Notes: generated by a model not told the origin, from the letters alone. A stretch of 64,000 nt of DNA from Patescibacteria group bacterium (GCA_019428815.1 JAHYJW010000002.1:81186-145185), one strand, 5' to 3'; positions 1-57,571 are shown, counted from the stretch's first letter. Made by a program: numbers and translations.

Positions 1-64
1 AATGGATACTGAAAATAAATTTCAATTTGCATCGAGGAGTTTGGTAATTCCCCCAGGATATTAA
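1..64 (+). CDS. 3' end (window-truncated) of a paralog of the class-III-signal protein encoded at 3711..4481
   Basis: In-frame tail DTENKFQFASRSLVIPPGY*. Nt 5..64 are nearly identical to 4425..4481, and the same MKKAINLNFKQS gene start follows as at 4491. Confidence 0.7.
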   Translation, partial: MDTENKFQFASRSLVIPPGY

Positions 65-81
65 AATGATAAAATAATAAA

Positions 82-3000
82 ATGAAAAAGGCAATAAACT
101 TAAATTTTAAACAAAGCATAATTTTAATTTTAGGAATATTTGTAATAATCTCTTCTTTAAATTTTATTAAAGCTGATCAAGCAGAATTTTATTGTGCTGA
201 AAAAACAATAAATAATGAATGGTGTCAGATGGTGCCAATTGAAGAGGTAGATACTAGTTATAGTTATTCTAGGACTTCTTGTGAGTTTACAGAATATTGT
301 TCAATAGGAACTTGTATCAGCGTTGAATCTGGAAGCTGTCAAACCTCTCCTAAAACATTGTGTAATCCTGAACAAGGCGGCTATTTTAATTCTAGTGAAA
401 TAAACCAAATAGAAGATTGTAAAAAGGGCTGTTGTATCCTCTCAAATGGTGCTAGGATCGTTAGAAAAATACAATGTACTGCTCTCTCAAGACACCTAAA
501 CCTTGTTTATAATTTTATACCAAGTATAAATACTGAGGCAGAATGCTCTGCTCAAGTTGCTTCTTCTAATTTAGGGGCTTGTATAATTGAAACAAATTCC
601 AGAAGAACTTGTTATCATAAAACTGGAGGAGAATGTCAAAGTTCTCAAGGAGAATTTCATGAAGGTTTTTTATGCAGCAATCCTCAATTGGGAACCGGGT
701 GTTTAATGTCAAATAGAACCACCTGTGTTTCTGGAAAGAATGAAGTTTATTTTATGGATTCTTGTGGTAATATTGCAAATGTTTATGACTTTAGTCGAAG
801 AGCTAGTACCCTTTATTGGAGCTATTTTCCAGGTTATGGAAACGTTGAATTAAGTACTGGGGATAACTTAGGGAATATAAGAAACCCCCGTCATGGATAT
901 TGTGATTATACAAAAGGAAGCACCTGCGCAAGGTATGATGTTCTAAAAGATGGGCTTCAGGCCAAACCAGCTTTAGGAAATTATGTCTGTAGAAATTTAA
1001 ACTGCCGCAAGAGTCCTTTAACAGGTAATCTAGAAAGAAAACATGGGGAATCTTGGTGTTCAAAACCACTTGAATATTTTGAAAATGCCAAACCGGGAGA
1101 TGTTTCTTATTTGTTATATTGTTATAATGGAGAGGTAAAATATGAACTCTGTGACCATTATAGAAATAGTTTATGTTATGAAGAAAGAACTGGAACAGGA
1201 GCCAATGCAATAAGTTCTGCAGGTTGTATTCTTAATAAATGGCAAGAATGTTTTGGTCAAGATGAAGAAAGATTTTGTTTAGGATCAGATAAGAAGTGCT
1301 CTGTGGTCCCTACCAATGAATATCCTACCAATGCAAATACGTTTATTCTGACAGAAGATGCAACCAGCAAAGGTATCACTCTTTCCGCAGGAACAGAAGT
1401 TCAGTGTATTCCAAAATACCCCCCGGGATTAAAATTTTGGGAAGCAGAACCAATAATTCCTTCAGCAGTTCTGGATAATTTAAAGAATTTAGAACTTAAT
1501 TCTGAATTAAGTAGTATCTGTGATATCTCAAGTGATGTTTGTAAAGTACAATACTATAGGAAATCTTCAGGATGGTTACCTTGGGGAACTTCAGTAAGGT
1601 GTGAAGGAAATAACTGTTTATGTATAGGGTTAAAGGATGAAGACAGAATCTACAATAATGATCGTGGGAAACAAGAAAACCTTAACAATGATTGGGTTAT
1701 ATACCAAAACGATATTTGTACATTAACCGCAGATTGTGGAGGCTATTCAAATACTAATCCTAATCCCAATTTCTTAGATATTAGCGGTATTTTTCATTTT
1801 TTAGAGTTTGCAGCTTCTAGCGGGCGTGGTGGATGGGGGAAGGTTATGGCCCGTGAAGGATGGTGGGCAAGAAGAGCTCATGGAACTGTAGATTTTACTT
1901 GTAAACCATGGCAACCAATATTAGGGGGTGAGGATTGTTCTAAATGTAATGGGCAACTTTTCCCATGTACGGAATACCAATGTAGAAGTTTAGGTAAGGC
2001 TTGTCAGTTCATCCAAGGGGATAGTGACAATCCCTTATGCATTTATATAGACGATGAAGATGTTATACCCCCAATAATTAATGAAAGAGAGGAATCACTC
2101 ATTGAAGATTATGTTTACAAAGAAATCCATTCTCCAACATCTAGAAAATTAGGGGTAGAAATTGAATATACTCAATCTGAAGATGGGTGTCTTCCTGCAT
2201 TTGAACCATTCTCTTTTGGAATTGAATTGGATAAATTAGGTTATTGTAAATTTGATTATGAACGTACAGAAGATTTCGATGAAATGGAATTCACTTTTGG
2301 GAATGAAGATAGAAATACCTTTGCTTTGAATTATACCCAAACATTTAGTTTACCAGGGGTTAAACATGTTCAAGAAGAATATGAATCAGAAGAGACAGAC
2401 GCTTATGAATATGGCTCACTAGAAGAAATTGAAGAATTTGAGAGTATTATGGAATTAATAAGACCTTCATTGCATTTAAACGGTGAGTATGAGGTTTATG
2501 TAAGATGTAAGTCTCTTAATAATGCTTATAATATCGAAGAATTTATGTTCAAATTCTGTATGGAAGACCAAGACGATATAACCCCCCCAATAATTAGGGG
2601 ATTTGACTGGCAAAATGAATCACCACTTGCCTTTTTTGGAGAAGGTGAAACAAGAAAGATAAACGTTAAAGTTTACATAAATAAACCTTCTCAATGTAAA
2701 TGGAGTTTGGAAGATAAAACTTATGAAAGTATGGAAAATAGTTTAAATTGCCAAGGTGAAGATGAAATTTTTAATAACCATCTTGCGTATTTTTGTGATG
2801 GAGAATTAACAGGACTAGAAAATAATCAAGAAAATGATTTTTATTTCAGATGTAATAGTTCATTTGGAGTTATGAATAGTGAATCTAAAAGACTTACTTT
2901 AATTGGAACAACCCCTCTTGATATAACTTCAATTTCACCAAATGTAACAACTGTAAAAAGTGGCACAAGTCCAGTAACAGTACCTCTTGAAGTTAGAACT

Positions 3001-3495
3001 TATGCAGGATATCAAAATGGAGTTGCAACCTGTCAATACAGCTCTTCAGGAAATCCGGGGACATATTCTACTTTTTCAAATACAAACTCACAACAACACT
3101 CTACAAATTTATATTTAGAAGAAGGAAGTTACGGGTATCACATAAGATGTTATGATAATGCAGGAAATTCAAAAACAGGAGTCGTGTCTTTCAATGTCGA
3201 AACAGATACTTCACCTCCAATAGTTATAAGAGTATACCGTGAAGCAAATAATTTAAAAATTATTACGAACGAAGAAGCAACCTGTGTTTACAGCAATGTA
3301 ATAAACACCGGATGTATGTATAATTTTGAAGATGGACAAACTATGACAAGAACATCTAGTAATAAGATTCATTCTACATCTTGGGATTACAGAAAAATCT
3401 TTTATATAAAGTGTAAAGATGAGTTTGAAAATCAACCTTATGGTGCTGGTTCAGGAGGTTGTAGTATAATTATAAAACCCTTTGAATTTGAATAA
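82..3495 (+). CDS. Giant secreted cysteine-rich surface protein, fused form (N-module paralogous to 4491..6245, C-module paralogous to 6999..8516)
   Basis: 1137-aa ORF. Sec-like signal MKKAINLNFKQSIILILGIFVIISSLNFIKA|DQ. Dense Cys throughout the N half. The C half has four repeated PPI(I/V)...C.(F/W/Y)...Y.(R/K)C modules. No enzymatic motif recognised. Confidence 0.85.
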   Translation: MKKAINLNFKQSIILILGIFVIISSLNFIKADQAEFYCAEKTINNEWCQMVPIEEVDTSYSYSRTSCEFTEYCSIGTCISVESGSCQTSPKTLCNPEQGGYFNSSEINQIEDCKKGCCILSNGARIVRKIQCTALSRHLNLVYNFIPSINTEAECSAQVASSNLGACIIETNSRRTCYHKTGGECQSSQGEFHEGFLCSNPQLGTGCLMSNRTTCVSGKNEVYFMDSCGNIANVYDFSRRASTLYWSYFPGYGNVELSTGDNLGNIRNPRHGYCDYTKGSTCARYDVLKDGLQAKPALGNYVCRNLNCRKSPLTGNLERKHGESWCSKPLEYFENAKPGDVSYLLYCYNGEVKYELCDHYRNSLCYEERTGTGANAISSAGCILNKWQECFGQDEERFCLGSDKKCSVVPTNEYPTNANTFILTEDATSKGITLSAGTEVQCIPKYPPGLKFWEAEPIIPSAVLDNLKNLELNSELSSICDISSDVCKVQYYRKSSGWLPWGTSVRCEGNNCLCIGLKDEDRIYNNDRGKQENLNNDWVIYQNDICTLTADCGGYSNTNPNPNFLDISGIFHFLEFAASSGRGGWGKVMAREGWWARRAHGTVDFTCKPWQPILGGEDCSKCNGQLFPCTEYQCRSLGKACQFIQGDSDNPLCIYIDDEDVIPPIINEREESLIEDYVYKEIHSPTSRKLGVEIEYTQSEDGCLPAFEPFSFGIELDKLGYCKFDYERTEDFDEMEFTFGNEDRNTFALNYTQTFSLPGVKHVQEEYESEETDAYEYGSLEEIEEFESIMELIRPSLHLNGEYEVYVRCKSLNNAYNIEEFMFKFCMEDQDDITPPIIRGFDWQNESPLAFFGEGETRKINVKVYINKPSQCKWSLEDKTYESMENSLNCQGEDEIFNNHLAYFCDGELTGLENNQENDFYFRCNSSFGVMNSESKRLTLIGTTPLDITSISPNVTTVKSGTSPVTVPLEVRTYAGYQNGVATCQYSSSGNPGTYSTFSNTNSQQHSTNLYLEEGSYGYHIRCYDNAGNSKTGVVSFNVETDTSPPIVIRVYREANNLKIITNEEATCVYSNVINTGCMYNFEDGQTMTRTSSNKIHSTSWDYRKIFYIKCKDEFENQPYGAGSGGCSIIIKPFEFE

Positions 3496-3710
3496 TAGGA
3501 TTAAGTTTAGCACAAAAAAATTAATCAGGGGGACTAATAAAAAAGTAAAAAAATTTTAATTCTAACTTGTAGTTTATTTCACTAAAATTTATAAATACTC
3601 CCCTCGTAAAAAAAGGGTATTGGATTATAAAGATTTTAAGATTCAGGTTATACTTAAAAAATTCAATTAAAGAGATGAAAAAGATCAAAAATTGAATCCC
3701 CTTAAAAAAT

Positions 3711-4481
3711 ATGGATTATCATCACATCAAAAATAAAAGAGGCCAAGTAACAATTTTTATTATTATCGCTGTAGTCCTTATAGGGGTAGCTCTTTTATTC
3801 TATTTTTTACTCCCTAAATTTCAAACAAGAATAGTTTTTGATGAAGATAACCCTCAAGATTTTATTCAAATGTGTCTTGAAGAAAAAATAGAAGATACTG
3901 TTAAAACAATTTCTTTACAAGGGGGGAGTATGGAACCAACCCACCATTTTACATATGACGATAAACCAATAGAGTATCTCTGTTTTACTAATGAGAATTA
4001 TAAAACATGTGTAATACAACAACCCTTACTTAGACAACATGTTGAAATTGAAGTTGAAAATGAAATTCAAGGAGATGTTGATATCTGTTTTAGTTCCCTA
4101 AAAGACCACTATGAAAGAAGGGGTTTTGATGTTAAAATGGACCCTGGAAGAACCAGTGTTGAAATTTTGCCCAACAGAATCACAACAAGATTTAATTATG
4201 TTTTAACTGTAACAAAAAGTATAACAGATAGGCACGACTCTTTTAGTATAACTCTTAATAACAATCTTTATGAGAGTATAGAAATAGCTAATAGCATTTT
4301 AGAGTGGGAGGCTATTTATGGAAATGCTGATCCAAGGTCTTATATGTTATTTTATCCAGATATAAGTGTTGAAAAAAATCTTAGGGATGATGGAACTAAA
4401 ATTTATATTATAAGTGAAAGAGATACTGAAAATAAATTTCAATTTGCATCGAGGAGTTTGGTAACTCTTCCCGGATATTAA
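3711..4481 (+). CDS. Prepilin-like (class III signal peptide) protein, function unknown
   Basis: N-terminus MDYHHIKNKRG|QVTIFIIIAVVLIGVALLFYFLL: a basic n-region, then Gly-Gln, then a hydrophobic helix, as in archaeal type IV pilin-like precursors. Soluble Cys-containing domain. A paralog tail sits at 1..64. Confidence 0.55.
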   Translation: MDYHHIKNKRGQVTIFIIIAVVLIGVALLFYFLLPKFQTRIVFDEDNPQDFIQMCLEEKIEDTVKTISLQGGSMEPTHHFTYDDKPIEYLCFTNENYKTCVIQQPLLRQHVEIEVENEIQGDVDICFSSLKDHYERRGFDVKMDPGRTSVEILPNRITTRFNYVLTVTKSITDRHDSFSITLNNNLYESIEIANSILEWEAIYGNADPRSYMLFYPDISVEKNLRDDGTKIYIISERDTENKFQFASRSLVTLPGY

Positions 4482-4490
4482 AATAATAAA

Positions 4491-6245
4491 ATGAAAAAGG
4501 CAATAAACTTAAATTTTAAACAGAGCATTCTTTTAGTAATAGTTTTTTTATTGATTATTCCTTCTTTGAATTTTGTTAAAGCAAACCAAGAAGAACTTTA
4601 TTGTGCTGAAAAAACAAACTGGCCAAATGGGGGAGCTTGGTGTCAAATGGTTCCTCTTGATGAGGTTAATACTAATTATAGATACTCTAGAACATCTTGT
4701 GAATCTACAGAATACTGTTCAGTAGGAACCTGTGTTAATACTTTAACTGGAAAATGTTTACCAGGTCCTCAAGCAACTTGTGACCCTGAAAAGGGAGGGT
4801 ATTTTTATAATAAAGATAAAGATGAAGTTGCAGAATGTAAAATTGGATGTTGTTTTTTAGGCGATGGAGCTGCAATGGTAGAAAGAGTAAAGTGTGATGC
4901 ATTAGGAAGAGAATACAACTTAAATGCAGAATTTAGAGCAGGAATTACAGAGGAATTAGTCTGTCTTGCAATGGCTTCTCCAAAATCAAAGGGTGCTTGC
5001 GTTTTAGGAACAGAGGTAGGTAGAAGTTGTAGTTTTATAACAAGGGAAGAATGCCAAAGTTCTCAAGGAGAATTTCATGAGGATCTTCTATGTACTAATC
5101 CTATTCTTGGAACAGTTTGTGCAATGACACAAAGAACAACCTGTGTCTCTGGGAAAAATGAAGTTTATTTTGTTGATTCTTGTGGGAATATCGCAAATGT
5201 TTATGATGCTAATAAAATAGATGATATTGCATATTGGAGTTATGTCCCAGGTGTTGAAGGTGTGGAAATTGATTGGGGACCAGATTCTAACGCTGGTTCT
5301 AGGATCTTAGGAAGTTGCGATTATCTTCTTGGAAGTACTTGTGCAAGATATGACAGATCAATAGATGGTTCAAATGCGAAACCAGATTATGGGAATTATG
5401 TTTGCAGAGATTTAAGTTGCCCAGAAAGTTCTCTAACTGGAGGAATTAAAAGAGAACACGGAGAGTCTTGGTGTTCAAAACCACTTGAATATTTTGAAAA
5501 TGCCAAACCGGGAGATATTTCTTATTTGTTATATTGCTATAATGGAGAGGTGAAATATGAACTCTGTGATCATTATAGAAATAGTTTATGTTATGAAGAA
5601 AAAGCATCTGATGGAAGAACCACTTATGCTGGTTGTACCCTTAATGAATGGACAGGGTGTATTTTTCAAGATAACACAAGAGATTGTGAAAATCTTAGAG
5701 ATTGTAAAGTTTTAGAAAATGTAGGAGTATTCAGAACAAGTTATGGAACAGAACAATTAATGTTGAATAGTACCTCAGGTGAAATGATAAGAGCTTCTTG
5801 TGTTCCAAAATATTCCCCAGGATTTAAATTTTGGGACCCAACAGGAACAATTCCCTCTTTAAGTTCAGAAAATCCTGGAAGTATCTGTGAACTTTCAAAT
5901 GTTGTTTGTTATGTTCATTACACTCAGGAATTAATTTGGACAAGTGTCTGGAGAGCAGATCCTTTCCCAGAATGTGTTGAGCTATGTAAAAAAGAAGGAG
6001 GAGGAGCGTGGAGTTGTACTAGACAGTGTACCCCTATTTGTTTTGATGGATTTACTGATCAAAGAAGTAATACTAGATTTGATGTTTATGTTGCATTTAA
6101 GTGGGCTAAAAGTTGGCAAAATTTATGCTCTTCTTTAGGAGATTGCGGGGCTGGTTCAAATTATATGGGCACATCGGGATATAACAGTTGGAAAGATTTA
6201 TTCATCCCTGGAAATCATGTTAAATTAGATAATATCCCAGAATAA
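4491..6245 (+). CDS. Secreted cysteine-rich protein, N-module-only paralog of 82..3495
   Basis: 584 aa with about 41 Cys by my count. Signal peptide nearly identical to the one at 82. Long colinear similarity to residues 1..590 of the 1137-aa protein (e.g. HGESWCSKPLEYFENAKPGD(V/I)SYLLYCYNGEVKYELCDHYRNSLCYEE). Confidence 0.85.
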   Translation: MKKAINLNFKQSILLVIVFLLIIPSLNFVKANQEELYCAEKTNWPNGGAWCQMVPLDEVNTNYRYSRTSCESTEYCSVGTCVNTLTGKCLPGPQATCDPEKGGYFYNKDKDEVAECKIGCCFLGDGAAMVERVKCDALGREYNLNAEFRAGITEELVCLAMASPKSKGACVLGTEVGRSCSFITREECQSSQGEFHEDLLCTNPILGTVCAMTQRTTCVSGKNEVYFVDSCGNIANVYDANKIDDIAYWSYVPGVEGVEIDWGPDSNAGSRILGSCDYLLGSTCARYDRSIDGSNAKPDYGNYVCRDLSCPESSLTGGIKREHGESWCSKPLEYFENAKPGDISYLLYCYNGEVKYELCDHYRNSLCYEEKASDGRTTYAGCTLNEWTGCIFQDNTRDCENLRDCKVLENVGVFRTSYGTEQLMLNSTSGEMIRASCVPKYSPGFKFWDPTGTIPSLSSENPGSICELSNVVCYVHYTQELIWTSVWRADPFPECVELCKKEGGGAWSCTRQCTPICFDGFTDQRSNTRFDVYVAFKWAKSWQNLCSSLGDCGAGSNYMGTSGYNSWKDLFIPGNHVKLDNIPE

Positions 6246-6296
6246 AAATTGGATTAAATAAAACAAAATAAAAAATAAAAAAAATAAAAAAAGAAA

Positions 6297-8516
6297 ATGA
6301 TTGAGATAAAGTCTGAAAATAAAAAAGATCATGTTTGGAGCATAAAAAAGAATCTAGCTTTAAATGAAATAATAATTTTAATTCTGAGCATAATTGCCTT
6401 TTCGTATTTAGTTGGAGAAAGCTTGCCTGTTGTAAGTGGAAGTGCAGGGACACCATCGTCTACCCTCGGTACAGAAGATTTTACGAAAGCTATAACAGAA
6501 GTTATAAATGAATCTATAGAGGAATCTAAAACAAATTTAGCTAAAGAAACTTTAGCCATGTCCAAACCTTTTGTACGGACTGAAAAGATAATTCCCCCAA
6601 CAAAATTACAACAGGTGTCAACTATCTCCCCACCATCCCCCGCTTCTAGTGGGGGGATATTTAAGAGTATATGGACGGAACTAACAAAGTCTTTAAAATT
6701 TTCTGATGGAGTGGCAGCGGTTTTTAATACAGCAACTGCTGCTTCAGGCGTAGCCTTTCTTCTGTCTTTCATAGTAGAAACCCTTATTGTAGGAATAACA
6801 ACTGGGGATTGGTCCAGGGCACTTGAAAGTGGAGTCCGAGTAGGTTCTGGTGCAGCGACAGGAGCTTTTCTAGGGTATATGATTGCCGGTCTTGTTGGTG
6901 GTCCCGCAGGCCTAATAGCTGCAGGGGTTAGCGCAATCGGTATATGGTTATTTAATAAATACTTAAAAAGAGATTCAGAAAGACAGGTTTCCTTTTTGTG
7001 TAAACCTTGGCAAGCTCAAATTGGAGGAGAAGAAGATTGTTCTAGATGTAATGACCAACTTTTCCCATGTACAGAATATCAATGTAAAAGTTTTGGGACT
7101 GCTTGTCAGTTAATAAATAAAGACACAAGTGAACCTAGATGTGTTTGGATTGCAGATAGGGACATAAATCCTCCTAGAATAACACCTTTAAGTGATTCAT
7201 TAACAGAAGGATATAATTATGAGCCACTTACTCCTGCTCTAGGAAGCGGAGGGGTTGAAATAACCTATCAAGAGTCAACAGACGGATGTCTTCCTGCATT
7301 CCAACCATTCAGTTTTGGAATTGAATTAGATAGGGAGGGATACTGTAGAATAGAATTTGAGAGAACTGGAAGTTTTGAAGAAATGAAATTTGACTTTGGC
7401 GGAAAAAACCTTTATCAAAAAGAACATACTCAACAAATGACTTTCCCGGGGGTTGTACATTTAGAAGAAGCGATTCAACAAAATGCTCTGAATATAACTG
7501 TTGATTCAAATATTGAGATGTATGTAAGGTGTATGTCAGTTAACGGAATAAAAAATGTTGAAGAATTCTTGTTTAAGTTTTGTATTGATAAAGGGCCAGA
7601 TACAACAGCTCCAATAATTAAGGGATTTAACTGGCGAGATGAAGCTCCAATTGCTTATTTTAAGGAAGGAGATACAAGGGAAGTAGATGTTCAAGTTTAT
7701 GTAAATGAACCGTCTGAATGTAAATGGGACTGGGAAGACAAAGACTACTCAAATATGAACAATGAACTTGACTGCCAATCGAGCATGGTTAATTTTAATG
7801 CACAACTTACTTATGTTTGTTCAGGGAAACTTACAGGACTAGAGAATAATCAAGAAAATGATTTTTATTTCAGATGTAAAGATCAACCTAATTCCCCTGA
7901 AGAAAATAGAAATGTGAACATAGAATCTAAAAAATTAACTTTAATCGGAACCCAACCATTATACATAAATTCTGCAAGCCCTGATTCAATAACCATAAAA
8001 GGATCTACAGATGTTATAAAAGTAACTTTAGAAGCAATAACTTCTGCGGGTTATAGGGAAGGAGAATCTACTTGTTTATATAGTAATACCGGAAATCAAG
8101 GAAGTTATGTATTATTCTCCCAAACAGACTCTCATTCACATTCTACAAATGTATATCTAGAAGAGGGAGATTATGACTTCTTTATCAGATGTATTGATTC
8201 AGCAGGAAATTCAGATACAAAAGAAATAAGTTTTGAGGTAGAAACAGATACTTATTCACCCAGAATAGTAAGAGTTTATTGGGAAACTAGCAATTTGAAA
8301 ATTGTTACAAATGAAGAAGCAGAATGTGTTTATAGTAACTTAGATTGTCAATACCTCTTTGAAGATGGGATTTCTATAAGTAGTGAGGTAAATAAAATAC
8401 TTCACACTCTTCCTTGGAATCCTTCCGAAACATTTTATATCAAATGTAAAGACCAGTTTGATAATAAACCATACCCCAACCAGTGTAGTATTGTTTTAAG
8501 GCCATTTTCTGTTTAG
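6297..8516 (+). CDS. Membrane-anchored protein carrying the C-module of the giant cysteine-rich protein
   Basis: 739 aa. N-terminal TM segment (IIILILSIIAFSYLV), a Gly/Ala-rich hydrophobic region at residues 138..219, then colinear similarity to residues 607..1137 of the 82..3495 product from CKPWQAQIGGEEDCSRCNDQLFPCTEYQC onward. Confidence 0.85.
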   Translation: MIEIKSENKKDHVWSIKKNLALNEIIILILSIIAFSYLVGESLPVVSGSAGTPSSTLGTEDFTKAITEVINESIEESKTNLAKETLAMSKPFVRTEKIIPPTKLQQVSTISPPSPASSGGIFKSIWTELTKSLKFSDGVAAVFNTATAASGVAFLLSFIVETLIVGITTGDWSRALESGVRVGSGAATGAFLGYMIAGLVGGPAGLIAAGVSAIGIWLFNKYLKRDSERQVSFLCKPWQAQIGGEEDCSRCNDQLFPCTEYQCKSFGTACQLINKDTSEPRCVWIADRDINPPRITPLSDSLTEGYNYEPLTPALGSGGVEITYQESTDGCLPAFQPFSFGIELDREGYCRIEFERTGSFEEMKFDFGGKNLYQKEHTQQMTFPGVVHLEEAIQQNALNITVDSNIEMYVRCMSVNGIKNVEEFLFKFCIDKGPDTTAPIIKGFNWRDEAPIAYFKEGDTREVDVQVYVNEPSECKWDWEDKDYSNMNNELDCQSSMVNFNAQLTYVCSGKLTGLENNQENDFYFRCKDQPNSPEENRNVNIESKKLTLIGTQPLYINSASPDSITIKGSTDVIKVTLEAITSAGYREGESTCLYSNTGNQGSYVLFSQTDSHSHSTNVYLEEGDYDFFIRCIDSAGNSDTKEISFEVETDTYSPRIVRVYWETSNLKIVTNEEAECVYSNLDCQYLFEDGISISSEVNKILHTLPWNPSETFYIKCKDQFDNKPYPNQCSIVLRPFSV

Positions 8517-8615: not shown

Positions 8616-8933
8616 ATGAACCTCGCTCTTATTCTTCTACTGATTGGGGCAATTGTTTTAACAGCAGGAGATTTATTTATGAAAAAATGGGTAAACACAA
8701 ATACCCAAATTTTTTATTTTGTTGGCTTAGTAGCTTATCTTATTGGATTGAATTTCTTAGCTCAAAGTTTTAAATTCAAGAATATTGCTATTGCTTCTGT
8801 TATGCTTGTAATTTTTAATATAATTATCTTATCTCTTGTAAGTTGGTTTTATTTTAAAGAAACTTTATCTCCATTACAAATAGCAGGAATAATATTAGGA
8901 ATAATTGCGGTAATTTTTTTAGAACTATCATAA
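8616..8933 (+). CDS. Small 4-TM membrane protein, SMR/EamA-half-like (possible lipid-linked sugar or small-molecule transporter)
   Basis: 105 aa with four hydrophobic helices. Size and topology resemble the SMR/ArnE-type family. No diagnostic catalytic residue confirmed. Confidence 0.45.
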   Translation: MNLALILLLIGAIVLTAGDLFMKKWVNTNTQIFYFVGLVAYLIGLNFLAQSFKFKNIAIASVMLVIFNIIILSLVSWFYFKETLSPLQIAGIILGIIAVIFLELS

Positions 8934-9060: not shown

Positions 9061-9549
9061 ATGGAAAAAGGAGGGCAGATGAATATCTCATTTGGGATGA
9101 TTTTCTCAGTGATTTTAGTTATTGTTTTTCTAACTGTTGCTTTTTATGCAATAAGGACGTTTCTTAAAATGCAAGAGAATGTTTCTATAGGAATTTTTTT
9201 AGAGGATTTACAAGAAGATGTAAACAATTTATGGCATGCGGAAGGCTCTCAAGAAAGAGAATATTCGCTTCCTTCGAAGATAAGATATATTTGTTTTGTT
9301 GATAATACTCAAGAACCCCAAGGAAGATATCAATCTTTTTTTGAAGATGTTTCTTTTGCAGCACAATCAACAAATAATCTTGCCTTTTATCCTCTTAGGT
9401 CTTCTGATATTGAATCTGTCGAAATAAAGAACATAAATTTAGAATCAATTATCTCTCAGGGTAATCCATATTGTATAGAAAATGTTAAGGGTGAGGTTAA
9501 ATTAACTTTAATAAAAGGGATTAGTGAAGCTTTAGTAAGAATAGAATAA
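9061..9549 (+). CDS. Prepilin-like (class III signal) protein
   Basis: MEKGG|QMNISFGMIFSVILVIVFLTVAFYAI followed by a soluble domain with 2 Cys. Confidence 0.5.
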   Translation: MEKGGQMNISFGMIFSVILVIVFLTVAFYAIRTFLKMQENVSIGIFLEDLQEDVNNLWHAEGSQEREYSLPSKIRYICFVDNTQEPQGRYQSFFEDVSFAAQSTNNLAFYPLRSSDIESVEIKNINLESIISQGNPYCIENVKGEVKLTLIKGISEALVRIE

Positions 9550-9681: not shown

Positions 9682-10635
9682 ATGTTAAAAAATAAGAAAG
9701 GTATTGAAATTTCTTTTTCTTGGCTTTTTGCAATAATTGTAGGGGCTTTTATTATCTTTTTAGCGATTTATGGTTCTATTAGAGTTTTAAATATGGGAAG
9801 AGAATTAACAAGTGCTGAGACTAGTGCTGAGATTGGGGTTTTATTGAATCCCTTAGAAACTGGTTTTGAAAGTGGGAGAGTTACCCTCTTAAAGATGCCA
9901 AAAGAAACTAGGATTCAAAATAGGTGTGAAAGTGAGGGGAGTTTTGGAAGACAGGGAATAGTGGTTTCACAAAAAAGTTTTGGAGAATGGGCAAAGGCAG
10001 ATATTGATGTTGGTTTTTTTAACAAATATCTGTTTTCTGATTATAATCTTGAAGGTAAAGAATTTTATATTTTTTCAAAACCCTTTGAATTCCCCTTTAA
10101 AGTTTCTGATATTGTTTATATTACCTCCTCAGAAGATAAGTACTGTTTTATTGAATCTACTTCTTTTCCAGACAGAATAAAAGAAGAATTAAATGATTTA
10201 AATCAAGGGAATATCTACATAGGTAGAGAAAATTGTCCAGAAGGTAGTATAAATGTCTGTTTTAATTCATATAATCCAAGTATGAATTGTGATATCAAAG
10301 TTGATTACGGAGGTAAAACTGTTGAGAAGGACAATGAATTAATGTATTTTATAACAGACTCTTTAATGTACGGAGCTATCTTTTCAGAACCTTTAATTTA
10401 TGAATGTCAGATAAAAAGGCTGATGAAAAGGGCAGAAAAACTTTCAGGATTATATCAAAATAAATTAAATAGGCTTATACAAGAAGGATGTTTCATTAAT
10501 TTTGAGCTTTCTTCTTTTAGTTCAATGTTATCTAATATCGAAAGTTCAGAAGAGCTTATTGGGGCATTTATTGAATCAGAAAGAATCAATGAGGGGAATA
10601 GAAGGTCTATTGGCTCTAGATGTGAGTTATGGTAG
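9682..10635 (+). CDS. Prepilin-like (class III signal) protein, larger Cys-rich ectodomain
   Basis: MLKNKKG|IEISFSWLFAIIVGAFIIFLAIYG. About 10 Cys in the 317-aa product. Confidence 0.55.
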   Translation: MLKNKKGIEISFSWLFAIIVGAFIIFLAIYGSIRVLNMGRELTSAETSAEIGVLLNPLETGFESGRVTLLKMPKETRIQNRCESEGSFGRQGIVVSQKSFGEWAKADIDVGFFNKYLFSDYNLEGKEFYIFSKPFEFPFKVSDIVYITSSEDKYCFIESTSFPDRIKEELNDLNQGNIYIGRENCPEGSINVCFNSYNPSMNCDIKVDYGGKTVEKDNELMYFITDSLMYGAIFSEPLIYECQIKRLMKRAEKLSGLYQNKLNRLIQEGCFINFELSSFSSMLSNIESSEELIGAFIESERINEGNRRSIGSRCELW

Positions 10636-10702
10636 TGAAGAATTAGAGATTAAATATGAAAATTTAAGTTAATAAAATAAAAAACAAAGGATAAGAAACC
10701 AG

Positions 10703-11266
10703 ATGAAACATAATAAAAACAGAAAAATAGCAAATAGGGGTACTAAAGGTCAAATGAAGCTTCAACAAATGGCTTTTATGATGATTGGGGTTACAATTTT
10801 CTTCCTTTTTGTGGGTTTATTTTTTGCTAGGATAATTTTTTCTAATGTCCAAAAGGCAGCAGAAGAAATCAAAGAGAGAGATGCATTACTATTAGTTTCA
10901 AAATTAGCAAATTCCCCAGAATTCTCTTGTGGGGAATCTTTTGGTACATTTAAAATAAACTGTATTGATGGGGATAAATTAATAGCATTAATTGATAATA
11001 TAGAAGATTATCGTATTCAAGGAGCTAATTTCTGGAAAGTAGATGGAATAACAGTGAGAAAAATATACCCCCAAGACTCATCTTATCAGGGTTTTGAATG
11101 TAGCCCTGAAAATTATCCAGAATGTAGCGAGTTTAAAGTTTTAGACCCTCAAGATAAAGGAATTGGGGTTTCTAATTTTGTTGCTTTATGTAGAAAAGAA
11201 CAAAAAGAGGGTCTTGTCCAGAATAAATGTGAAATTGCTAAGATATTTGTTTATTATGAATCATAA
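10703..11266 (+). CDS. Prepilin-like (class III signal) protein
   Basis: Basic n-region ...NRGTKG|QMKLQQMAFMMIGVTIFFLFVGLFF. About 7 Cys in the ectodomain. Confidence 0.5.
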   Translation: MKHNKNRKIANRGTKGQMKLQQMAFMMIGVTIFFLFVGLFFARIIFSNVQKAAEEIKERDALLLVSKLANSPEFSCGESFGTFKINCIDGDKLIALIDNIEDYRIQGANFWKVDGITVRKIYPQDSSYQGFECSPENYPECSEFKVLDPQDKGIGVSNFVALCRKEQKEGLVQNKCEIAKIFVYYES

Positions 11267-11314
11267 ACTAAAAAAATGAAATTAAAGATATAAATTAACT
11301 AAATATTATTAAAA

Positions 11315-11824
11315 ATGTTAAAAATTAAGCAAAAAAAAGCTCAAGAAGAGATGTTAGGGTTTGCTTTGATAGTTATCATTGTATCAATTGCAATTATCTT
11401 TCTTTTGTTTCTTTTTTTGAGAAGCGATAGTAAACAAGGGGTAGAGAGTTATGAGGTGAATAGTTTTATCCAAACTTCTTTACATTATACGACAGAATGT
11501 AAGGAATATTCTGGTTATGTGGATGTTAGAAAACTTATTTTTAAATGTGTAAGGAATGAACATTGTCAGGGGGGTGAAGATCCTTGTGAAATGTTAAATG
11601 ATACTCTTAGAGGGATAATTGAAAAAAGTTGGCCCTATGGAGAAAATAGACCAATTAAAGGTTATTTTATGAACATTTTAGACATTGTTAGTACTGATGA
11701 AACTAGTTCTAGGAGTATAGTAGACTTAAAAGGGGGAAATGAGACAAATAATTACAAGGGATCTTCTCAGGATTTTACAGTTGTTCCTTACTCAATAAGG
11801 ATTTATTTTAGGACTTATTACTGA
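11315..11824 (+). CDS. Prepilin-like (class III signal) protein
   Basis: MLKIKQKKA|QEEMLGFALIVIIVSIAIIFLLFLF. Ectodomain with 5 Cys. Confidence 0.5.
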   Translation: MLKIKQKKAQEEMLGFALIVIIVSIAIIFLLFLFLRSDSKQGVESYEVNSFIQTSLHYTTECKEYSGYVDVRKLIFKCVRNEHCQGGEDPCEMLNDTLRGIIEKSWPYGENRPIKGYFMNILDIVSTDETSSRSIVDLKGGNETNNYKGSSQDFTVVPYSIRIYFRTYY

Positions 11825-11947: not shown

Positions 11948-12301
11948 TTAGACCTTTACTTCAATGATAATTGAATCTACTGCTATTACTGGTTTATGGC
12001 GTATTCTCTTTTTGGTTTTTTCTTGTATTAGTTCTATAAACCCAAACCTTTCAAAAAGCTTAATGTCATCACTTACAGACTTAAAACTACGGCCTGTTTT
12101 TCTAGCTAGATCGTAAATTGACCCGGGTTTTTGATTCTTTATAACATTCAAAAGCCTAGCTTTTTCATTGCTAAGTAGATGTCTTAAAGCAGAAATTCCT
12201 TCAAAATCATAATCTTTTTTGGAAAAACCTGCTTTTTTAAAAACTGAGAAGGTTCCTTTTGATTGAAGTATAGTTATTTCTCTTGTTTTAGTCTTTGGCA
12301 T
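11948..12301 (-). CDS. Small winged-helix DNA-binding protein (putative transcriptional regulator)
   Basis: 117 aa. The stretch ARLLNVIKNQKPGSIYDLARKTGRSFKSVSDDIKLFERFGFIE is a typical wHTH recognition region. Transcribed divergently from the S-layer-like gene. Confidence 0.6.
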   Translation of the reverse strand: MPKTKTREITILQSKGTFSVFKKAGFSKKDYDFEGISALRHLLSNEKARLLNVIKNQKPGSIYDLARKTGRSFKSVSDDIKLFERFGFIELIQEKTKKRIRHKPVIAVDSIIIEVKV

Positions 12302-12597: not shown

Positions 12598-12964
12598 ATT
12601 TTTTGTGTTTAAGATAAACACCATAGAGTGTATCAATTAGAGACGATGGATGATTAAATTGATACAGATAAAGAAAAAGTTAAGAGGGTTTTATTTGAGG
12701 TTATTTATGGTGTTCTAATAGGGGATTGTAAAAAACATAAAAGATAAAACAATCAAAGTAAAATATCTAATATCAAAATGTTAAAAAAAATATTCCAAAA
12801 AGATTTTTCATTTGTAAGAAATTCTGAAGATTGTAATCCGTATAATAAATCTCACAATTCATATTCACCCAATTTAGTGGTCTTACCCTATGGCTACTTA
12901 GATGGTGAAAACTGTCATAGGCAGTATATTCATAGAGTTGAAAGGAGGTTTAAAAAAAATAAAT

Positions 12965-15292
12965 ATGAAATTTAAACAAATTTCCGCAGTATTAGCTAGT
13001 GCGATGTTGGTAGGATTAACCGCAGGAGGTATCGCTAGTGCTACAAGTTATCCTCAACCATTTGTTGAAGGAAGCCAAGGCAACTTTGCTGTTGTTTATG
13101 GTAATGCAGCACCTACAGATATCACTGGAAGCGATTTATCTAGCGCAAACACAATTGCAACTCACCTTCAAGGCTTATTACCTACTGGACCTGGAATTGG
13201 TTTAGGAAGTGAATACATTAGTCTTGGTGAAGAATCTGCTTCAGATTTGATTTTAGGAACAAGCCTAAATATCTTTTCAGGAGTCGCAGATGTGGAACTT
13301 CCAACATTACTCCAAGATAGAAAAATTAGAGCGGGAGGAATCGATGTAGAATATTTCACTACTATAGCAATCGGGGATAATGTAATTGAATTTGGTAATC
13401 TGGGTTATGAAGAGAACTATTTAGTTAATACAAATCTTGCAGCAGATTTAATACCAGTCTTACATGTTAACATGGCTAATGAAGCTTGGACATTGAACAT
13501 AGATTTTGATGATTCCTTTAATGCTAGTAATGTTAGAGCTGGAGAAATATTAAATATCGCAGGAACTGAATGGTCTGTTAAACCAAATTTAGAATTTGAT
13601 GACACAACTCTTGTTTTATATCAATCTGCATTAACTATGAATGTTGACTATGGAGAAACAGAAATAGCTACAATTGGAGGAGACTCTTTCCAAGTAACAG
13701 TGCAGAGTGTTGCAGAAAATGCTGCAAGTGCAAGAATAAAGATTAATAATGTAATAGAAACAGTTTCTATTGGTGGTGAAATAGAGGTTGGAGACCAAAC
13801 TTTCTACATAAATGATATCTCTGTTTGGCAATTCCCTGAGGGGGCTGAAGTTGAGATATTTGCCGGTTCTCAAAAATTAGAAATTTCAGATGTGAATAGA
13901 GAAGTTGAAATTAACGATGAGATTGTTAGAGGTGTTACTGGCCATTTTGAAGGAGGAACTATTGATCAAATAGACAGCTTAGAATTTATCTTCACACCTT
14001 CAGATATGGAGGCAGAAAGAGATGAATTTGATTATCTTGAAATTGGAGGAACAATTGTTGATCCAGTATTTGGGACTATTGCTTTAACCTTTGATTCAGG
14101 AAGTCAAGAATTTGAAGATGGAGAATACTTTAAAATTGACGCTTCAGGTAGCTCAACTGCTATTATTAAGATTTCAAATGGGGCAGGAAAAATCTATGAA
14201 TTTACGGCATATGAATACAAAGAAGGAGCTTTAAGAGATAAGGTTCTTGTTGGAACCACTTTAGATGGGTTAGACAGAGATAATGAAAAAACAACGATAA
14301 TCCTTCCAGAAAGAGGAAAATCTAAAGCTATTGAGATTGATAGAGTTAATAACAATTATGGGGAAGACAGCAGTGTTCGATTTAGGGATAAAACAGATGG
14401 AACAACCTTTACTGTAGAAAATGGTGATCTTATGTTAAGAAATGAATACCGGGTAGTATTCTATGACACTCTTAACACATCTGGTGCTTACTTAGATAAT
14501 GTGTTAACAGGAGGAGCAGATTTTGCTATCTTCTTAGCTGGAGACACTGTTAGCAGCTCCAGTATATTGGATACTTTCGATTGGTTTGAAGCAAAGAATG
14601 AGGTTAATGTTACCTTTACAGCTGCAGCATCTAACGCTTCTACGATAAGCATTTTAGAACATTCAGATGGAAGCCATACTCCTGTGACTATTGCTTTTGA
14701 TATAGGACTAAATTTGGATGATGAAACAACAGTAAAATTAAGTTCAACCTTAAGTGGATCTTTAGACAAAGAATCAGAATATGGATATTTCCTAACTGAA
14801 TTGGGAAGTTATCTAAAAACAGAAAATGATGATTATCGTTGGATAGAGCTTTGGATTCCTGAAGAAACTACAGAATACAATGTCTACATAGGTTCTTCAG
14901 CAGAATCAGACATTCCAACTGTTGATTTACCAGTCTTCAAAGATAGCGAGATGAGTAGCATTGCTAGTACTAAGAACTTGATTGTTGTAGGAGGAAGTTG
15001 TATCAATACTGTTGCTGCACAATTACTTGACTTAAGTTATCCTTCTTGTGACAGCGCTTTCAGCGCTGAAACTGGAGTAGGAGCTGATAAATTCTTAATA
15101 CAGAGTTTTGAAAGACCAGGTCATTCAAGTAAGATTGCACTTCTTGTTGCAGGTTACCAGGCTGAAAATACTGTTGCTGCAATAAACCACTTGAAATTCA
15201 ATATGGGTACTAAAGACCTATCTGTGGGAAAGAAGTACATTGGTAGTGGTACTACTGGAAATACTGCAATTCTAACAGAAAGTACAGTATAA
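12965..15292 (+). CDS. S-layer-like secreted surface protein
   Basis: Start moved to MKFKQISAVLASAMLVGLTAGGIASA|TSYP (Sec signal), preceded by GGAGGT. Acidic, Thr/Ser-rich, almost Cys-free, with several N-x-S/T sequons. The C-terminal LIVVGGSCINTVAAQLL resembles the conserved motif of methanogen S-layer C-domains. Long leader and strong terminator. Confidence 0.55.
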   Translation: MKFKQISAVLASAMLVGLTAGGIASATSYPQPFVEGSQGNFAVVYGNAAPTDITGSDLSSANTIATHLQGLLPTGPGIGLGSEYISLGEESASDLILGTSLNIFSGVADVELPTLLQDRKIRAGGIDVEYFTTIAIGDNVIEFGNLGYEENYLVNTNLAADLIPVLHVNMANEAWTLNIDFDDSFNASNVRAGEILNIAGTEWSVKPNLEFDDTTLVLYQSALTMNVDYGETEIATIGGDSFQVTVQSVAENAASARIKINNVIETVSIGGEIEVGDQTFYINDISVWQFPEGAEVEIFAGSQKLEISDVNREVEINDEIVRGVTGHFEGGTIDQIDSLEFIFTPSDMEAERDEFDYLEIGGTIVDPVFGTIALTFDSGSQEFEDGEYFKIDASGSSTAIIKISNGAGKIYEFTAYEYKEGALRDKVLVGTTLDGLDRDNEKTTIILPERGKSKAIEIDRVNNNYGEDSSVRFRDKTDGTTFTVENGDLMLRNEYRVVFYDTLNTSGAYLDNVLTGGADFAIFLAGDTVSSSSILDTFDWFEAKNEVNVTFTAAASNASTISILEHSDGSHTPVTIAFDIGLNLDDETTVKLSSTLSGSLDKESEYGYFLTELGSYLKTENDDYRWIELWIPEETTEYNVYIGSSAESDIPTVDLPVFKDSEMSSIASTKNLIVVGGSCINTVAAQLLDLSYPSCDSAFSAETGVGADKFLIQSFERPGHSSKIALLVAGYQAENTVAAINHLKFNMGTKDLSVGKKYIGSGTTGNTAILTESTV

Positions 15293-15464: not shown

Positions 15465-16058
15465 ATGGAAAAAATTAAAAGACTGGTTTCAAAAAATCAA
15501 AGAAAGAAAAAAAATAGGCAAAATCAAACATGGATAGGTGTTTTATTAATGATGATAATGTTTTTAAGTGTTCTAGGATTTGCACTACAATATAACCCCG
15601 ATGATAACTCTCAGAATAATGAAGATTTTTTAACTTACAATGGTTTTAAGTTTGTTCATTCAAATGGGTTTTGGATTCTTGACAATTTTGTTTTTTCTTA
15701 TAATCCTTCAGAAGTTCCAGATATTGGGAGTGGGCTAAGGGACGCTACGTATTATGCTGAACAACCATTGTATATATTTTCGGAAAATGAGGAATCTACT
15801 ATAGAGGTAATAATGAATTTAAGACAGATTGTCCAAAGATATCAAGAAGCTTGCCCTGCAGAGAATGTTTTAAATGAAAGTGTTCAATGTCTTGAAGATG
15901 TTCCTTTTAAGAGTTGTTCAGAAAATTTTATAATAATTCGAGAAGGAATGAATAATTCAATTTTTCAGGAAGAAGGATGTGTCTATATAACAGGTCCTAA
16001 AGAAGAATTATTAAAGTTAACAGACCAATTCTTATTTAAAATCTTAACAATAAAGTAA
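15465..16058 (+). CDS. Membrane-anchored hypothetical protein
   Basis: Basic N-terminus, one TM segment (WIGVLLMMIMFLSVLGFAL), and an ectodomain whose C-terminal part resembles that of the next gene. Confidence 0.6.
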   Translation: MEKIKRLVSKNQRKKKNRQNQTWIGVLLMMIMFLSVLGFALQYNPDDNSQNNEDFLTYNGFKFVHSNGFWILDNFVFSYNPSEVPDIGSGLRDATYYAEQPLYIFSENEESTIEVIMNLRQIVQRYQEACPAENVLNESVQCLEDVPFKSCSENFIIIREGMNNSIFQEEGCVYITGPKEELLKLTDQFLFKILTIK

Positions 16059-16059
16059 A

Positions 16060-16893
16060 ATGGCTAAAAAAAAGGAAAAATTAAGTGAAAAAGAAAAGAC
16101 AGAAGATAAAACAAAGGGATTAAGTGAAAAAGAGGAGGATGTTGAGGATAAGGGGGAAGATTTAGAACAAAAAGAGGGGGGACTAATAAAAGGAACATTT
16201 AGTAAAAATCTCAAGTTTAAGGGGAAAAACAAAATAAAAACTGAAAAACAAAATAAAAAGAAGGTTATAGAAGAAAAGTCCAAAAAAGAGGATGAGGTTT
16301 CAAAAAATCAGAATAGAATCTTGACAGCTTTTTTTGTTTTAGCAGGAATAGCTTTTTTAGTGATTTTCTTATTAACCTATCGTCCTGTTGAAGAAGGAAA
16401 TTTTGAATATCGGGGAATAAATTTTTCAATTGTTGATTTTTGTGGAGATAACAATATCTCGTGTTTGAGAACTTATCAAACTGCAGTTCCTTTTGTTTAT
16501 AAAAATCAAAAAGCAAATTATAACTTTTATTTAAGAAACGATCCTAGAAAATTAGATGAAAAAATCCCTTTTGAGGGGGACTTTGTCTTAAAAAAAGATT
16601 TTTTTGTTAAAATAGACTTTAATCAGTACTGTGAAGGAGATGAAACTATTGCAATTGTAAATTTTGGTAACTTACACCAGATAGCAGGAGTTAATATCAT
16701 AAATGGAGAAAATGCTAGTTGTGATTATTCTGGAGAAAATACCTTTGTGGTTATTCAGGAAGGAGATAAAACTAAAATTGAACAATTTGGGCCTTCGTGT
16801 TATCGAATAATTGTAAAAGAATGCGAAATTCTAAAAGGTTCTGAAAGATTTATGCTTGAAACACTTGTATGGGTAAATGAAAAAAGCAATTAA
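16060..16893 (+). CDS. Membrane-anchored hypothetical protein with Lys/Glu-rich cytoplasmic N-terminus
   Basis: About 90 aa of K/E-rich sequence, a TM segment (ILTAFFVLAGIAFLVIFLLTY), then a Cys-containing ectodomain. Start is 2 nt after the previous stop. Confidence 0.6.
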   Translation: MAKKKEKLSEKEKTEDKTKGLSEKEEDVEDKGEDLEQKEGGLIKGTFSKNLKFKGKNKIKTEKQNKKKVIEEKSKKEDEVSKNQNRILTAFFVLAGIAFLVIFLLTYRPVEEGNFEYRGINFSIVDFCGDNNISCLRTYQTAVPFVYKNQKANYNFYLRNDPRKLDEKIPFEGDFVLKKDFFVKIDFNQYCEGDETIAIVNFGNLHQIAGVNIINGENASCDYSGENTFVVIQEGDKTKIEQFGPSCYRIIVKECEILKGSERFMLETLVWVNEKSN

Positions 16894-16919: not shown

Positions 16920-17531
16920 TTAATTTTTCTTCTTTTTAGTTTTAGAAAGGCTAAACAATTTTTTTAAGTCCGAATAGAAGGGAATTTCAGTTATCTTAAA
17001 GATCTTTACTTCAACAAACCATATTCCCACAACAAATAAAGTGCTTACCGCATACCATAAAAATTGATGGGTTACATCAAAGAATGCTGATTCAGTGTAC
17101 GCTAAAAAAGATAAAAGGACAATTCTGAGGATATTAATAACTAGGAATATACCAAAGGAAAAGAAAATTGCAGAAAGTCTCTTTTTAAACTTTAAACCAG
17201 GAGTAGATAAGTTTAGTACAAGTAATAGATAATAAGCAGAACCTGCAATACATGCAGGAATCAGTTCTATGGGAAAAATATGTCCTAATATCAAGATTGT
17301 TTCAGAAAAGAGAATCACGTCAAAAAATAATTTTAAAATAAGGTAAACTGGATAAACAGTAAGTGGTGTAAAAATAAAATAAAATATAAAAAGCCCAGGG
17401 GTTCCAGCCAATACAAGGATTAAGTATCTTGACATCAAATCAAAAACATTAAGAGGGAAAGATTTATTTTCGGATCTCTTATTTAAAGAGGATTTCTTAG
17501 AATTAATAGGCCCCCTTTTTTTCCTTACCAT
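16920..17531 (-). CDS. Exosortase/archaeosortase-family transpeptidase, short DPANN-type (pacearchaeosortase-like)
   Basis: 203-aa polytopic protein. It has the family's ordered Cys / Asn-x-x-Arg / His signature: IPACIAGSAYY ... LVINILRIVLL ... VTHQFLWYAVS. Confidence 0.6.
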   Translation of the reverse strand: MVRKKRGPINSKKSSLNKRSENKSFPLNVFDLMSRYLILVLAGTPGLFIFYFIFTPLTVYPVYLILKLFFDVILFSETILILGHIFPIELIPACIAGSAYYLLLVLNLSTPGLKFKKRLSAIFFSFGIFLVINILRIVLLSFLAYTESAFFDVTHQFLWYAVSTLFVVGIWFVEVKIFKITEIPFYSDLKKLFSLSKTKKKKN

Positions 17532-54450: not shown

Positions 54451-54495
54451 GACCTTAACAAAGATTTTAAAAGGTTTTTTCCTTAATTTTTAGAA

Positions 54496-57504: not shown

Positions 57505-57571
57505 ATAAACTATAATTAGAATCCTTTTTCACAATCTTTAAAATAGCTGCTTTTTTAGGAGATTTATAAAA

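Follow-up and report, generated by a model that had tools for sequence, protein, structure and literature searches.

The window analysed here is a stretch of 64,000 nucleotides labelled as Patescibacteria group bacterium (GCA_019428815.1 JAHYJW010000002.1:81186-145185), and close to its start it encodes the same two-module protein twice, once as a single fused gene and once as two adjacent genes, all on the plus strand. The fused gene F (82..3495) encodes 1137 amino acids (aa), in which a predicted Sec-type signal (nt 82..174) is followed by a Cys-rich N-module with 39 Cys (nt 175..1758), a join of 45 residues predicted to be disordered (nt 1759..1896, approximately residues 560-605) and a C-module of predicted immunoglobulin (Ig)-like domains with 21 Cys (nt 1897..3492), which gives F 60 Cys in total. 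The first half of the split copy, N (4491..6245), encodes 584 aa with a Sec-type signal and 41 Cys and is anchorless. An intergenic spacer of 51 nt, 76% of which are A (6246..6296), separates it from the second half, C (6297..8516), which encodes 739 aa. C starts with a signal-peptide-like N-terminus (residues 1-48, nt 6297..6440), followed by a Ser/Thr/Pro-rich stretch, a hydrophobic, Gly/Ala-rich linker (residues ~138-220, nt ~6708..6956) and a C-module (residues 233-739, nt 6993..8513) that holds all of its 21 Cys. An earlier sequence-only reading of the window had named the same three open reading frames (ORFs), with the same boundaries.

That reading had also proposed that the first half of F is colinear with the 584-aa product and the second half with the C-terminal part of the 739-aa product, and both colinearities hold in BLASTP. 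Residues 1-491 of F align with residues 1-477 of N at 53% identity (E 4e-170), and a weak tail extends the alignment to SLGDCG...N, a motif of the whole family that hardly varies among 82 sequences (nearly invariant columns C546, G550, C552, G553 and N557). Residues 597-1134 of F align with residues 225-737 of C, that is with its 515 C-terminal residues, at 50% identity (540 bits). N and C show no similarity to one another (best E 2.6, BLASTP), hence the two split products are colinear with separate parts of F and not homologous to each other. The similarity also extends to the DNA, with 71% identity between nt 5..1263 and 4422..5672 (1288 nt aligned) and 67% between 2490..3296 and 7514..8338. 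Given the E-values, the long identical stretches such as EYFENAKPGD.SYLLYCYNGEVKYELCDHYRNSLCYEE, and the alignment at the DNA level, the similarity of F to N and C is genuine homology. The proposed fused and split pair is therefore not a product of low-complexity similarity; a likeness restricted to Cys spacing was considered and is ruled out by the long identical stretches and the DNA alignment. An acidic, predicted helical insert of about 27 residues (EEYESEETDAYEYGSLEEIEEFESIMELI; F ~756-798, window 2350..2470) sits inside the first β-sandwich region of the C-module of F and is not present in the 739-aa protein.

The join of F, correctly put at about 45 residues in the sequence-only reading, has neither Cys nor a hydrophobic segment. 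In the AlphaFold2 model of F the mean predicted local distance difference test score (pLDDT) is 84.2, and residues 557-595, with values below 50, are the main long low-confidence stretch within the mature protein. The join stands in the place of the N tail, stop, spacer, signal peptide and transmembrane (TM) linker of the split pair, and comparison with 6165..6992 by blastn-short and tblastx recovered no remnants of these in it, except for residues at the start of the C-module (RRAHGTVDFTCKPW). The hydropathy profile of F has the N-terminal signal and no further hydrophobic segment. Residues 1-232 of C contain no Cys and have hydrophobic segments at 15-48, which is signal-like, and at 138-220. 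Hydropathy revealed no C-terminal hydrophobic segment or sorting signal in F, N or C. The proposal that the locus offers a secreted and a membrane-tethered version of one assembly stands as a sequence prediction insofar as F is anchorless, but the N protein of the split pair is anchorless too and only the C protein is predicted to be anchored.

A family search with F returned 127 matches, and the 120 listed were classified by BLAST against both modules and by hydropathy. About 90 of these 120 homologues are single chains of 1150-1500 aa with N-module, TM linker and C-module, the linker being 200-450 residues long with several hydrophobic helices. About 20 consist of the N-module only (630-750 aa), and in a few (975-1104 aa) the two modules are fused with no hydrophobic linker between them, as in F. 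Neither C-only proteins nor the 584-aa and 739-aa proteins of the window are among the matches of F, seemingly owing to a limit of the word index, as C-only genes are abundant in GTDB loci. Thus the usual form of the family, as judged from these sequences, is a single chain with a signal peptide, an N-module of ~520 aa with ~40 conserved Cys, a hydrophobic, Gly/Ala-rich linker with putative membrane helices and a C-module, the last predicted to comprise a small Cys-knot and then several Ig-like domains. Because N-module, membrane linker and C-module in one chain is the commonest arrangement, the window shows two derived forms of the family. The names of the F homologues are only of the type 'hypothetical protein [Nanoarchaeota / Pacearchaeota archaeon]', and among the sequences searched relatives were found only in DPANN archaea of the Pacearchaeota/Woesearchaeota type. 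We assign F, N and C to one uncharacterised family of putatively exported, Cys-rich surface proteins.

To place the locus among related genomes, species-representative genomes were scanned, which matched at least 600 stretches, of which 599 were confirmed. Those with titled records are all Pace-, Woese- or Nanoarchaeota or an unclassified 'archaeon', with one 'bacterium' as the exception. ORFs were called in 80 GTDB loci that were fetched and were classified by phmmer, and the counts of the split are based on 82 non-redundant loci. The conserved cluster comprises ~13 genes. Its recurring order is the small prepilin-like gene p256, a fused gene with N-module, TM linker and C-module (N-TM-C, often present), a second p256, an N gene, a gene for TM linker and C-module (TM-C, the counterpart of C), p162, p317, p187 and p169, followed by an HVO_A0114-family gene on the minus strand, an S-layer-like protein, p197 and p277. 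N and TM-C are adjacent in 65 of the 82 loci, and about eight more loci have them with a larger gap between them; the median intergenic gap in the 65 adjacent loci is 23 nt, and it is 51 nt in the window. The upstream paralogue was detected in 32 loci, in 28 of them with the TM linker, in three without it and in one cut or unclear, and 17 loci with 6 kb or more of upstream sequence lack it. Upstream paralogues free of a TM linker occur elsewhere, for example in loci L003, L026, L055 and L078. The contigs that carry N-only homologues have this gene order as well; in L003 it is a large gene, a p256-like gene, a 1041-aa gene, another p256-like gene, a 639-aa N, a 751-aa C, four small genes, HVO_A0114 and S_layer_C. 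Its 639-aa protein matches N with E 2e-81, and its 751-aa protein aligns with C from end to end (E 4e-121), also in the N-terminus and the linker. The cluster thus normally holds two old paralogous units, one upstream and fused and one downstream and split, and the side-by-side arrangement of fused and split paralogues is old and widespread. In locus L001, a nucleotidyltransferase/HepT toxin-antitoxin-like pair is inserted between p256 and the N gene (7401..8004), and a 412-aa ORF without family match lies between the N and TM-C genes (10054..11292).

As the same split is found in at least 65 of the 82 related loci, it is ancient and not an assembly artefact; the independent genomes agree, and each of the two ORFs is intact, with a start and a targeting signal of its own. 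It is scarcely credible that only one architecture is real and that a mistake in sequencing or assembly produced either the stop and spacer (6243..6296) or the join (1759..1896), for although the spacer is A-rich, low-complexity sequence of an error-prone type, the identical split recurs in independent assemblies from many studies, the second gene has a complete and conserved signal-peptide-like start, the copies differ by ~30-40% at the DNA level throughout and are not collapsed repeats, and F is a clean ORF of 1137 codons.

The start of the second gene is informative about how the split came about. TM-C proteins have a conserved signal-like start, for example ...LAISQIILLIVSIIAFSYLVGS...VVSAQ, and many full-length fused members start alike (...ALSYLQIIILVIGTFAFAYLIGS..VVSAQ), whereas N-only proteins have signal peptides of a more ordinary type. 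An FAFSY-like motif is present in the first 60 residues of 42 of 73 TM-C and 18 of 35 fused proteins, and of five of 74 N-only and two of 121 p256 proteins. A simple stop in the middle of the gene explains the second half less well, because this half has its own conserved, family-like signal peptide; we infer that the second gene goes back to a full-length copy whose N-module was lost, or that it gained a family-type 5' end by recombination; either fits better. The stop and A-rich spacer described in the sequence-only reading are real, but the ~230 extra residues of C do not merely add membrane anchoring, since they include a signal-peptide-like start of their own.

The direction of the event in the window was read from trees of the separate modules. 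We built neighbor-joining (NJ) trees with Kimura distances from trimmed MAFFT alignments of 117 N-modules and 131 C-modules, with bootstraps run on 32-33 taxa. Both trees separate an upstream clade (genes followed by p256), almost all members of which are fused, from a downstream clade (genes followed by p162), almost all members of which are split; the few fused exceptions in the downstream clade include L036, L062, L074 and L049. Although F lies physically at the upstream position, it belongs phylogenetically deep in the downstream clade. Both of its modules fall within a group formed by the window N or C and the loci L005, L006, L007, L008, L038 and L069, with a bootstrap of 100/100 in both trees, in NJ trees that are distance-based and with gene conversion present. 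In every 50-column window of the alignment F is at least as similar to the downstream as to the upstream clade, and in most of them it is closest to the window's own split pair. F and N also have in common derived replacements of conserved Cys (C39/C56 and C255/C271 in F numbering). As both modules of F nest inside the split-pair clade, the event seen in the window is a fusion and not a fission. The sequence-only reading was right about the kind of event, a natural fusion/fission pair within one locus, and had left its direction to be polarised; the module trees set it as an ancient split followed by a recent fusion. F itself keeps 128 of 149 family-conserved residues (86%) and is intact rather than decaying.

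The reverse order, in which F keeps the ancestral fused state of the lineage and the 584 + 739 aa pair arose by a recent fission in the window genome, is very improbable. Fused genes are the majority architecture among the homologues listed, and L027 and L077 have a single fused gene directly before p162 that may represent the state before duplication. However, the same split with its own second signal peptide exists in at least 65 other species-level genomes, the split is old because the full-length alignment of split orthologues has only 31-34% identity, and F is nested within the split clade and is without the TM linker that fused ancestors carried. A recent fission is contradicted by the wide occurrence of the split and the nesting of F. 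Fused genes at the downstream position, besides that of L036, were found in L049 (2436..), L062 (9941..) and L074 (9932..), with or without TM linker. These three are scattered over the downstream clade, and from the sequences re-fusion seems to have occurred several times independently.

We consider it rather probable, at roughly 70%, that the split is ancient, that F is a lineage-specific duplicate which was re-fused with loss of the anchor, and that the exported, disulfide-bonded modules act as a unit. The starting point would be a locus without the old upstream unit, as in the close relatives with enough upstream flank: the 10-kb upstream flanks of L005, L038 and L069 contain no large gene, and in L006-L008 the upstream sequence is too short to judge. 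The downstream unit of p256, N and TM-C would then have been duplicated in tandem. That the duplicated unit includes p256 follows from the DNA homology, which begins inside the preceding p256 (5..1263 vs 4422..5672). The window starts within the 3' end of this p256 copy (2..63, plus strand), a prepilin-like gene cut by the window start that translates to MDTENKFQFASRSLVIPPGY and a stop; its counterpart is the end of the p256 at 3711..4481, ...RDTENKFQFASRSLVTLPGY and a stop, and the ends compared are ...DTENKFQFASRSLVIPPGY and ...DTENKFQFASRSLVTLPGY, each up to the stop. As a conserved partner, p256 stands before every large-gene unit. An in-frame join of the two ORFs in the new copy would then have removed the N tail, stop, spacer, second signal peptide and membrane linker, ~260 codons, and left a disordered connector of 45 residues. 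The fused copy would afterwards have diverged faster than the split pair, and short tracts may have been re-homogenised by gene conversion.

Several tracts point to such conversion. An exact match of 51 nt between 1051..1101 and 5466..5516 (both plus strand) is a probable gene-conversion patch; over the 30 codons F332-361 and N334-363 the protein identity is 97% and the identity at third codon positions 90%, against a background third-position identity of ~0.5. Exact runs of 43 and 44 nt lie in the p256 3' end, the spacer and the first 11 codons, the 43-nt run being the match of 5..47 to 4422..4464. This suggests patchy gene conversion between the two units. In L036 the upstream and downstream large genes (5008.. 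and 9983..) are both fused, with 1327 and 1385 aa, and are near-identical over the first ~35 residues (MVERRFINKKAGISYLEILLLIVSVFAFSFLV.. and MVERKFISEKAGISYLEILLLIVSVFAFSFLV..), which suggests that homogenisation of the 5' ends between paralogues recurs there as in the window.

A number of observations weigh against a recent duplication followed by re-fusion. The distance of N to its L005 orthologue is 0.46 and that to F 0.69, hence either the duplication predates the split between window and L005 and the copy was lost elsewhere, or F has changed at a higher rate. The trees were built from distances (NJ, Kimura) and not by maximum likelihood, and conversion between paralogues could pull F toward the split pair. 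Moreover, F occupies the place where other genomes keep the old upstream paralogue, and a further copy before the window start is possible, as the sequence seen begins there.

From this arises the alternative that F is the positional orthologue of the old upstream fused paralogue, which was overwritten by conversion and then lost its TM linker. We regard it as unlikely, though with more in its favour than a recent fission. F has the usual place of the upstream paralogue, with p256 genes before and after it, conversion tracts are visible between both units, the N-termini of the two L036 copies are nearly identical too, and upstream paralogues without TM linker do exist (L003, L026, L055 and L078 among them). 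On the other hand, none of the 50-column windows of F lies nearer to the upstream than to the downstream clade, and in L005, L038 and L069 an upstream paralogue that could have been converted is missing. The divergence between F and the split pair is also fairly even, at ~50% on the aa level over both modules, so that a wholesale conversion, if there was one, must be old and complete.

Known families offer little help with the large proteins. The Pfam scan of F, N and C gave only sub-threshold Big_13 and DUF4625 matches, all in the C-module, the Big_13 scores (Pfam: PF19077) being 18.2 and 19.0 bits and thus below the gathering threshold of 27 bits. NCBIfam has no family for F, N or C, and a PDB sequence search with a profile of 93 family sequences gave nothing at E<=1. 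In the AlphaFold2 model of N, most of residues 40-410 have a pLDDT > 90; a Foldseek search with the N-module model against PDB and BFVD found nothing at E<=0.001, with the FnI/EGF-like modules of factor XII as the best PDB match (E 0.59). For the C-module the model shows a small Cys-rich unit and then β-sandwich domains, and the full fused model matches only generic Ig/FN3 arrays in Foldseek (E ~1e-11 to 1e-8). For the PilY1/DUF2341-type adhesin domain there is no Pfam or NCBIfam match and no specific Foldseek match in the large proteins, and the models S_layer_C (Pfam: PF05124) and PACE-CTERM (NCBIfam: NF033506) do not match F, N or C. A literature search returned no description of the gene family or of the cluster next to the pacearchaeosortase, and both are undescribed in the resources searched.

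The small genes around F, N and C complete the cluster. Besides p256 at 3711..4481, the prepilin-like genes on the plus strand are p162 (9061..9549), p317 (9682..10635), p187 (10703..11266) and p169 (11315..11824), which are conserved in this order in most of the 82 loci. The N-termini of the five proteins are class III-like, namely KRG|QVTIFIIIAVVLIG in p256 and KGGQMNISFGMIFSVILV, KKG|IEISFSWLFAIIVGA, KGQMKLQQMAFMMIGV and KKAQEEMLGFALIVIIV in the others. A [KR][GAS]Q motif is present in 98 of 121 p256, 50 of 57 p187, 41 of 54 p169 and 37 of 64 p162 orthologues, and p317 starts with KKG followed by (A)FE.SF; in these N-termini a hydrophobic stretch comes after the motif. At the level of motifs, the five small proteins have putative class III (prepilin-type) signals. 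Pfam, NCBIfam and PDB sequence-profile searches gave no family assignment for the small neighbour proteins. Further downstream lie an HVO_A0114-family small protein (11948..12301, minus strand; Pfam: PF25212, E 2e-16), conserved in related loci, the 796-aa S-layer-like protein (12902..15292, plus strand), in which S_layer_C matches residues 49-764 with E 9e-8, and the conserved small genes p197 (15465..16058, plus strand) and p277 (16060..16893, plus strand), with which the cluster ends.

Directly downstream of the conserved cluster, a pacearchaeosortase (16920..17531, minus strand; NCBIfam: NF033505, 213 bits, cut-off 80) adjoins a PACE-CTERM putative S-layer protein (17813..19675, minus strand; NF033506, 391 bits, cut-off 110). 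Two different S-layer-like proteins are thereby encoded within 7 kb (12902..15292 and 17813..19675), and an archaeosortase-like gene is kept downstream in 24 of the 30 loci with enough flank. On the other side, PCNA and other unrelated genes are conserved flanks in 50 loci, with PCNA upstream of the cluster in these 50 and a ~456-aa protein in 36. Also upstream are two Cys-rich surface proteins with C-terminal membrane anchors, one of ~605 aa in 29 loci (for example L021, 1689..3506) and one of ~432 aa in 16 loci (for example L020, 869..2167). Between the TM-C gene and p162 the window has a 105-aa EamA/SMR-like membrane protein (8616..8933, plus strand; Pfam: PF00892, E 4e-6, just below the cut-off). 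There is no matching ORF in the 80 GTDB loci classified, in which p162 usually directly follows TM-C, and the gene is apparently an insertion specific to its lineage. A glycosylation neighbourhood occupies 53443..62000, near the opposite end of the window, with a GT4-family glycosyltransferase, AglB/STT3 (54496..57504), a GT1-family enzyme (57572..58636) and three more ORFs of ~360-375 aa; these genes may be relevant to the modification of surface proteins. No secretion ATPase, TadC/platform protein or prepilin peptidase was detected by Pfam among the 29 window ORFs scanned.

The window is low in GC (~31%) and contains archaeal markers, namely a SecY with a Sec61-type plug, AglB/STT3, FtsZ and a ribosomal protein operon. 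Based on the Sec61-type SecY, AglB, the pacearchaeosortase, the PACE-CTERM protein and the titles of the related loci, the genome is assigned to a DPANN archaeon of the Pacearchaeota/Woesearchaeota type.

The cleavable-looking Sec signals and the many Cys suggest that both modules are located outside the cell and disulfide-bonded, where they would act as one unit. The C-module of F must be exported with the whole chain, hence the C-module of the anchored forms should also be outside, and in that case the linker needs an even number of membrane passes after cleavage of the signal. That the two modules work together, as the sequence-only reading had argued, is strengthened as a prediction by the adjacency of the genes in at least 65 of 82 loci, with the short median gap, and by their fusion in the upstream paralogue of many genomes. 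The secreted N protein of the split pair would be held non-covalently, most simply by the membrane-anchored TM-C, given the conserved adjacency of the two genes, the fusion of N to TM-C in paralogues and the lack of an anchor in N. The anchorless F would be either shed or held by partners, for which the co-duplicated p256 is the obvious candidate.

The whole cluster would most likely build a cell-surface adhesion or envelope structure, and we infer that the function is probably that of a surface adhesion or envelope complex. A serious alternative to adhesion is an envelope-structural role beside the S-layer genes and the pacearchaeosortase, in which F, N and C are structural components such as S-layer anchors or pseudo-periplasm spacers, neither adhesins nor associated with a pilus, and the prepilin-like proteins are merely membrane-anchored envelope proteins. 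We see this as possible. The S_layer_C protein at the cluster end, followed by the pacearchaeosortase and the PACE-CTERM protein, the lack of a type IV filament ATPase or platform gene among the 29 ORFs and the position of the cluster among housekeeping genes, such as PCNA, are in line with it. However, F, N and C show no similarity to known S-layer families, and the five proteins with class III signals resemble sets of minor pilins and adhesins (PMC4858521; bioRxiv 10.64898/2026.04.22.720090). Somewhat more speculatively, the cluster could be a DPANN-specific surface apparatus not described before, in which a membrane-hairpin protein with two ectodomains, an orphan-fold Cys-rich N-module and an Ig-stalk C-module, would serve host or surface attachment together with a dedicated prepilin-like subunit, and repeated splitting, re-fusion and loss of the linker would tune whether the binding module is anchored, held or shed.

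Fusion/fission pairs of the Rosetta-stone type, in which a composite gene corresponds to split genes whose products act together, are the closest parallel to the large genes. As in these, two adjacent genes are colinear with the halves of a longer paralogue and their adjacency is conserved. Here, however, both states are present in one locus, the split is ancient and the fused state is a secondary re-fusion, which moreover removed an internal signal peptide and the membrane linker, so that the predicted anchoring differs. Archaeal type IV filament (TFF) loci combine minor pilins with large adhesin-like or S-layer-like Ig-fold proteins (Makarova et al. 2016, PMC4858521; bioRxiv 10.64898/2026.04.22.720090). 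The cluster is similar in that small proteins with class III signals are encoded beside large Cys-rich, Ig-domain secreted and S-layer-like proteins, but it differs in that the 29 ORFs include no ATPase, platform protein or prepilin peptidase and in that F, N and C lack a domain of the DUF2341/PilY type and fit into none of the families described. A central membrane linker between two ectodomains is also not a feature of TFF adhesins as described. Big_13 and tandem Ig/FN3 proteins, such as GhpA of Aureispira and the SiiE adhesin, are comparable in the predicted β-sandwich chain of the C-module, but the sequence scores are below the cut-off, the TM-scores are low, the likeness is generic and the N-module has no counterpart in them. 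The pacearchaeosortase/PACE-CTERM system (NCBIfam: NF033505, NF033506) shares the surface neighbourhood, being encoded directly downstream, but F, N and C are not pacearchaeosortase substrates, as they have no C-terminal hydrophobic sorting signal.

Pacearchaeota and Woesearchaeota are abundant and uncultivated, and to our knowledge almost nothing has been reported on how they hold on to hosts or surfaces. With at least 600 matching stretches, the locus appears to be among the most conserved surface-protein clusters of these archaea, yet the family is missing from Pfam, NCBIfam and PDB. Fusion and fission as processes are well known, and the locus adds an evolutionary example in which an ancient fission, a lineage-specific re-fusion and conversion patches come together, a clean rather than a revolutionary case of gene fission and re-fusion. 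For the family, the fused and split paralogues make a ready prediction of an interaction between N-module and C-module, and a predicted membrane-tethered pair next to an anchorless single chain is a natural experiment on anchoring.

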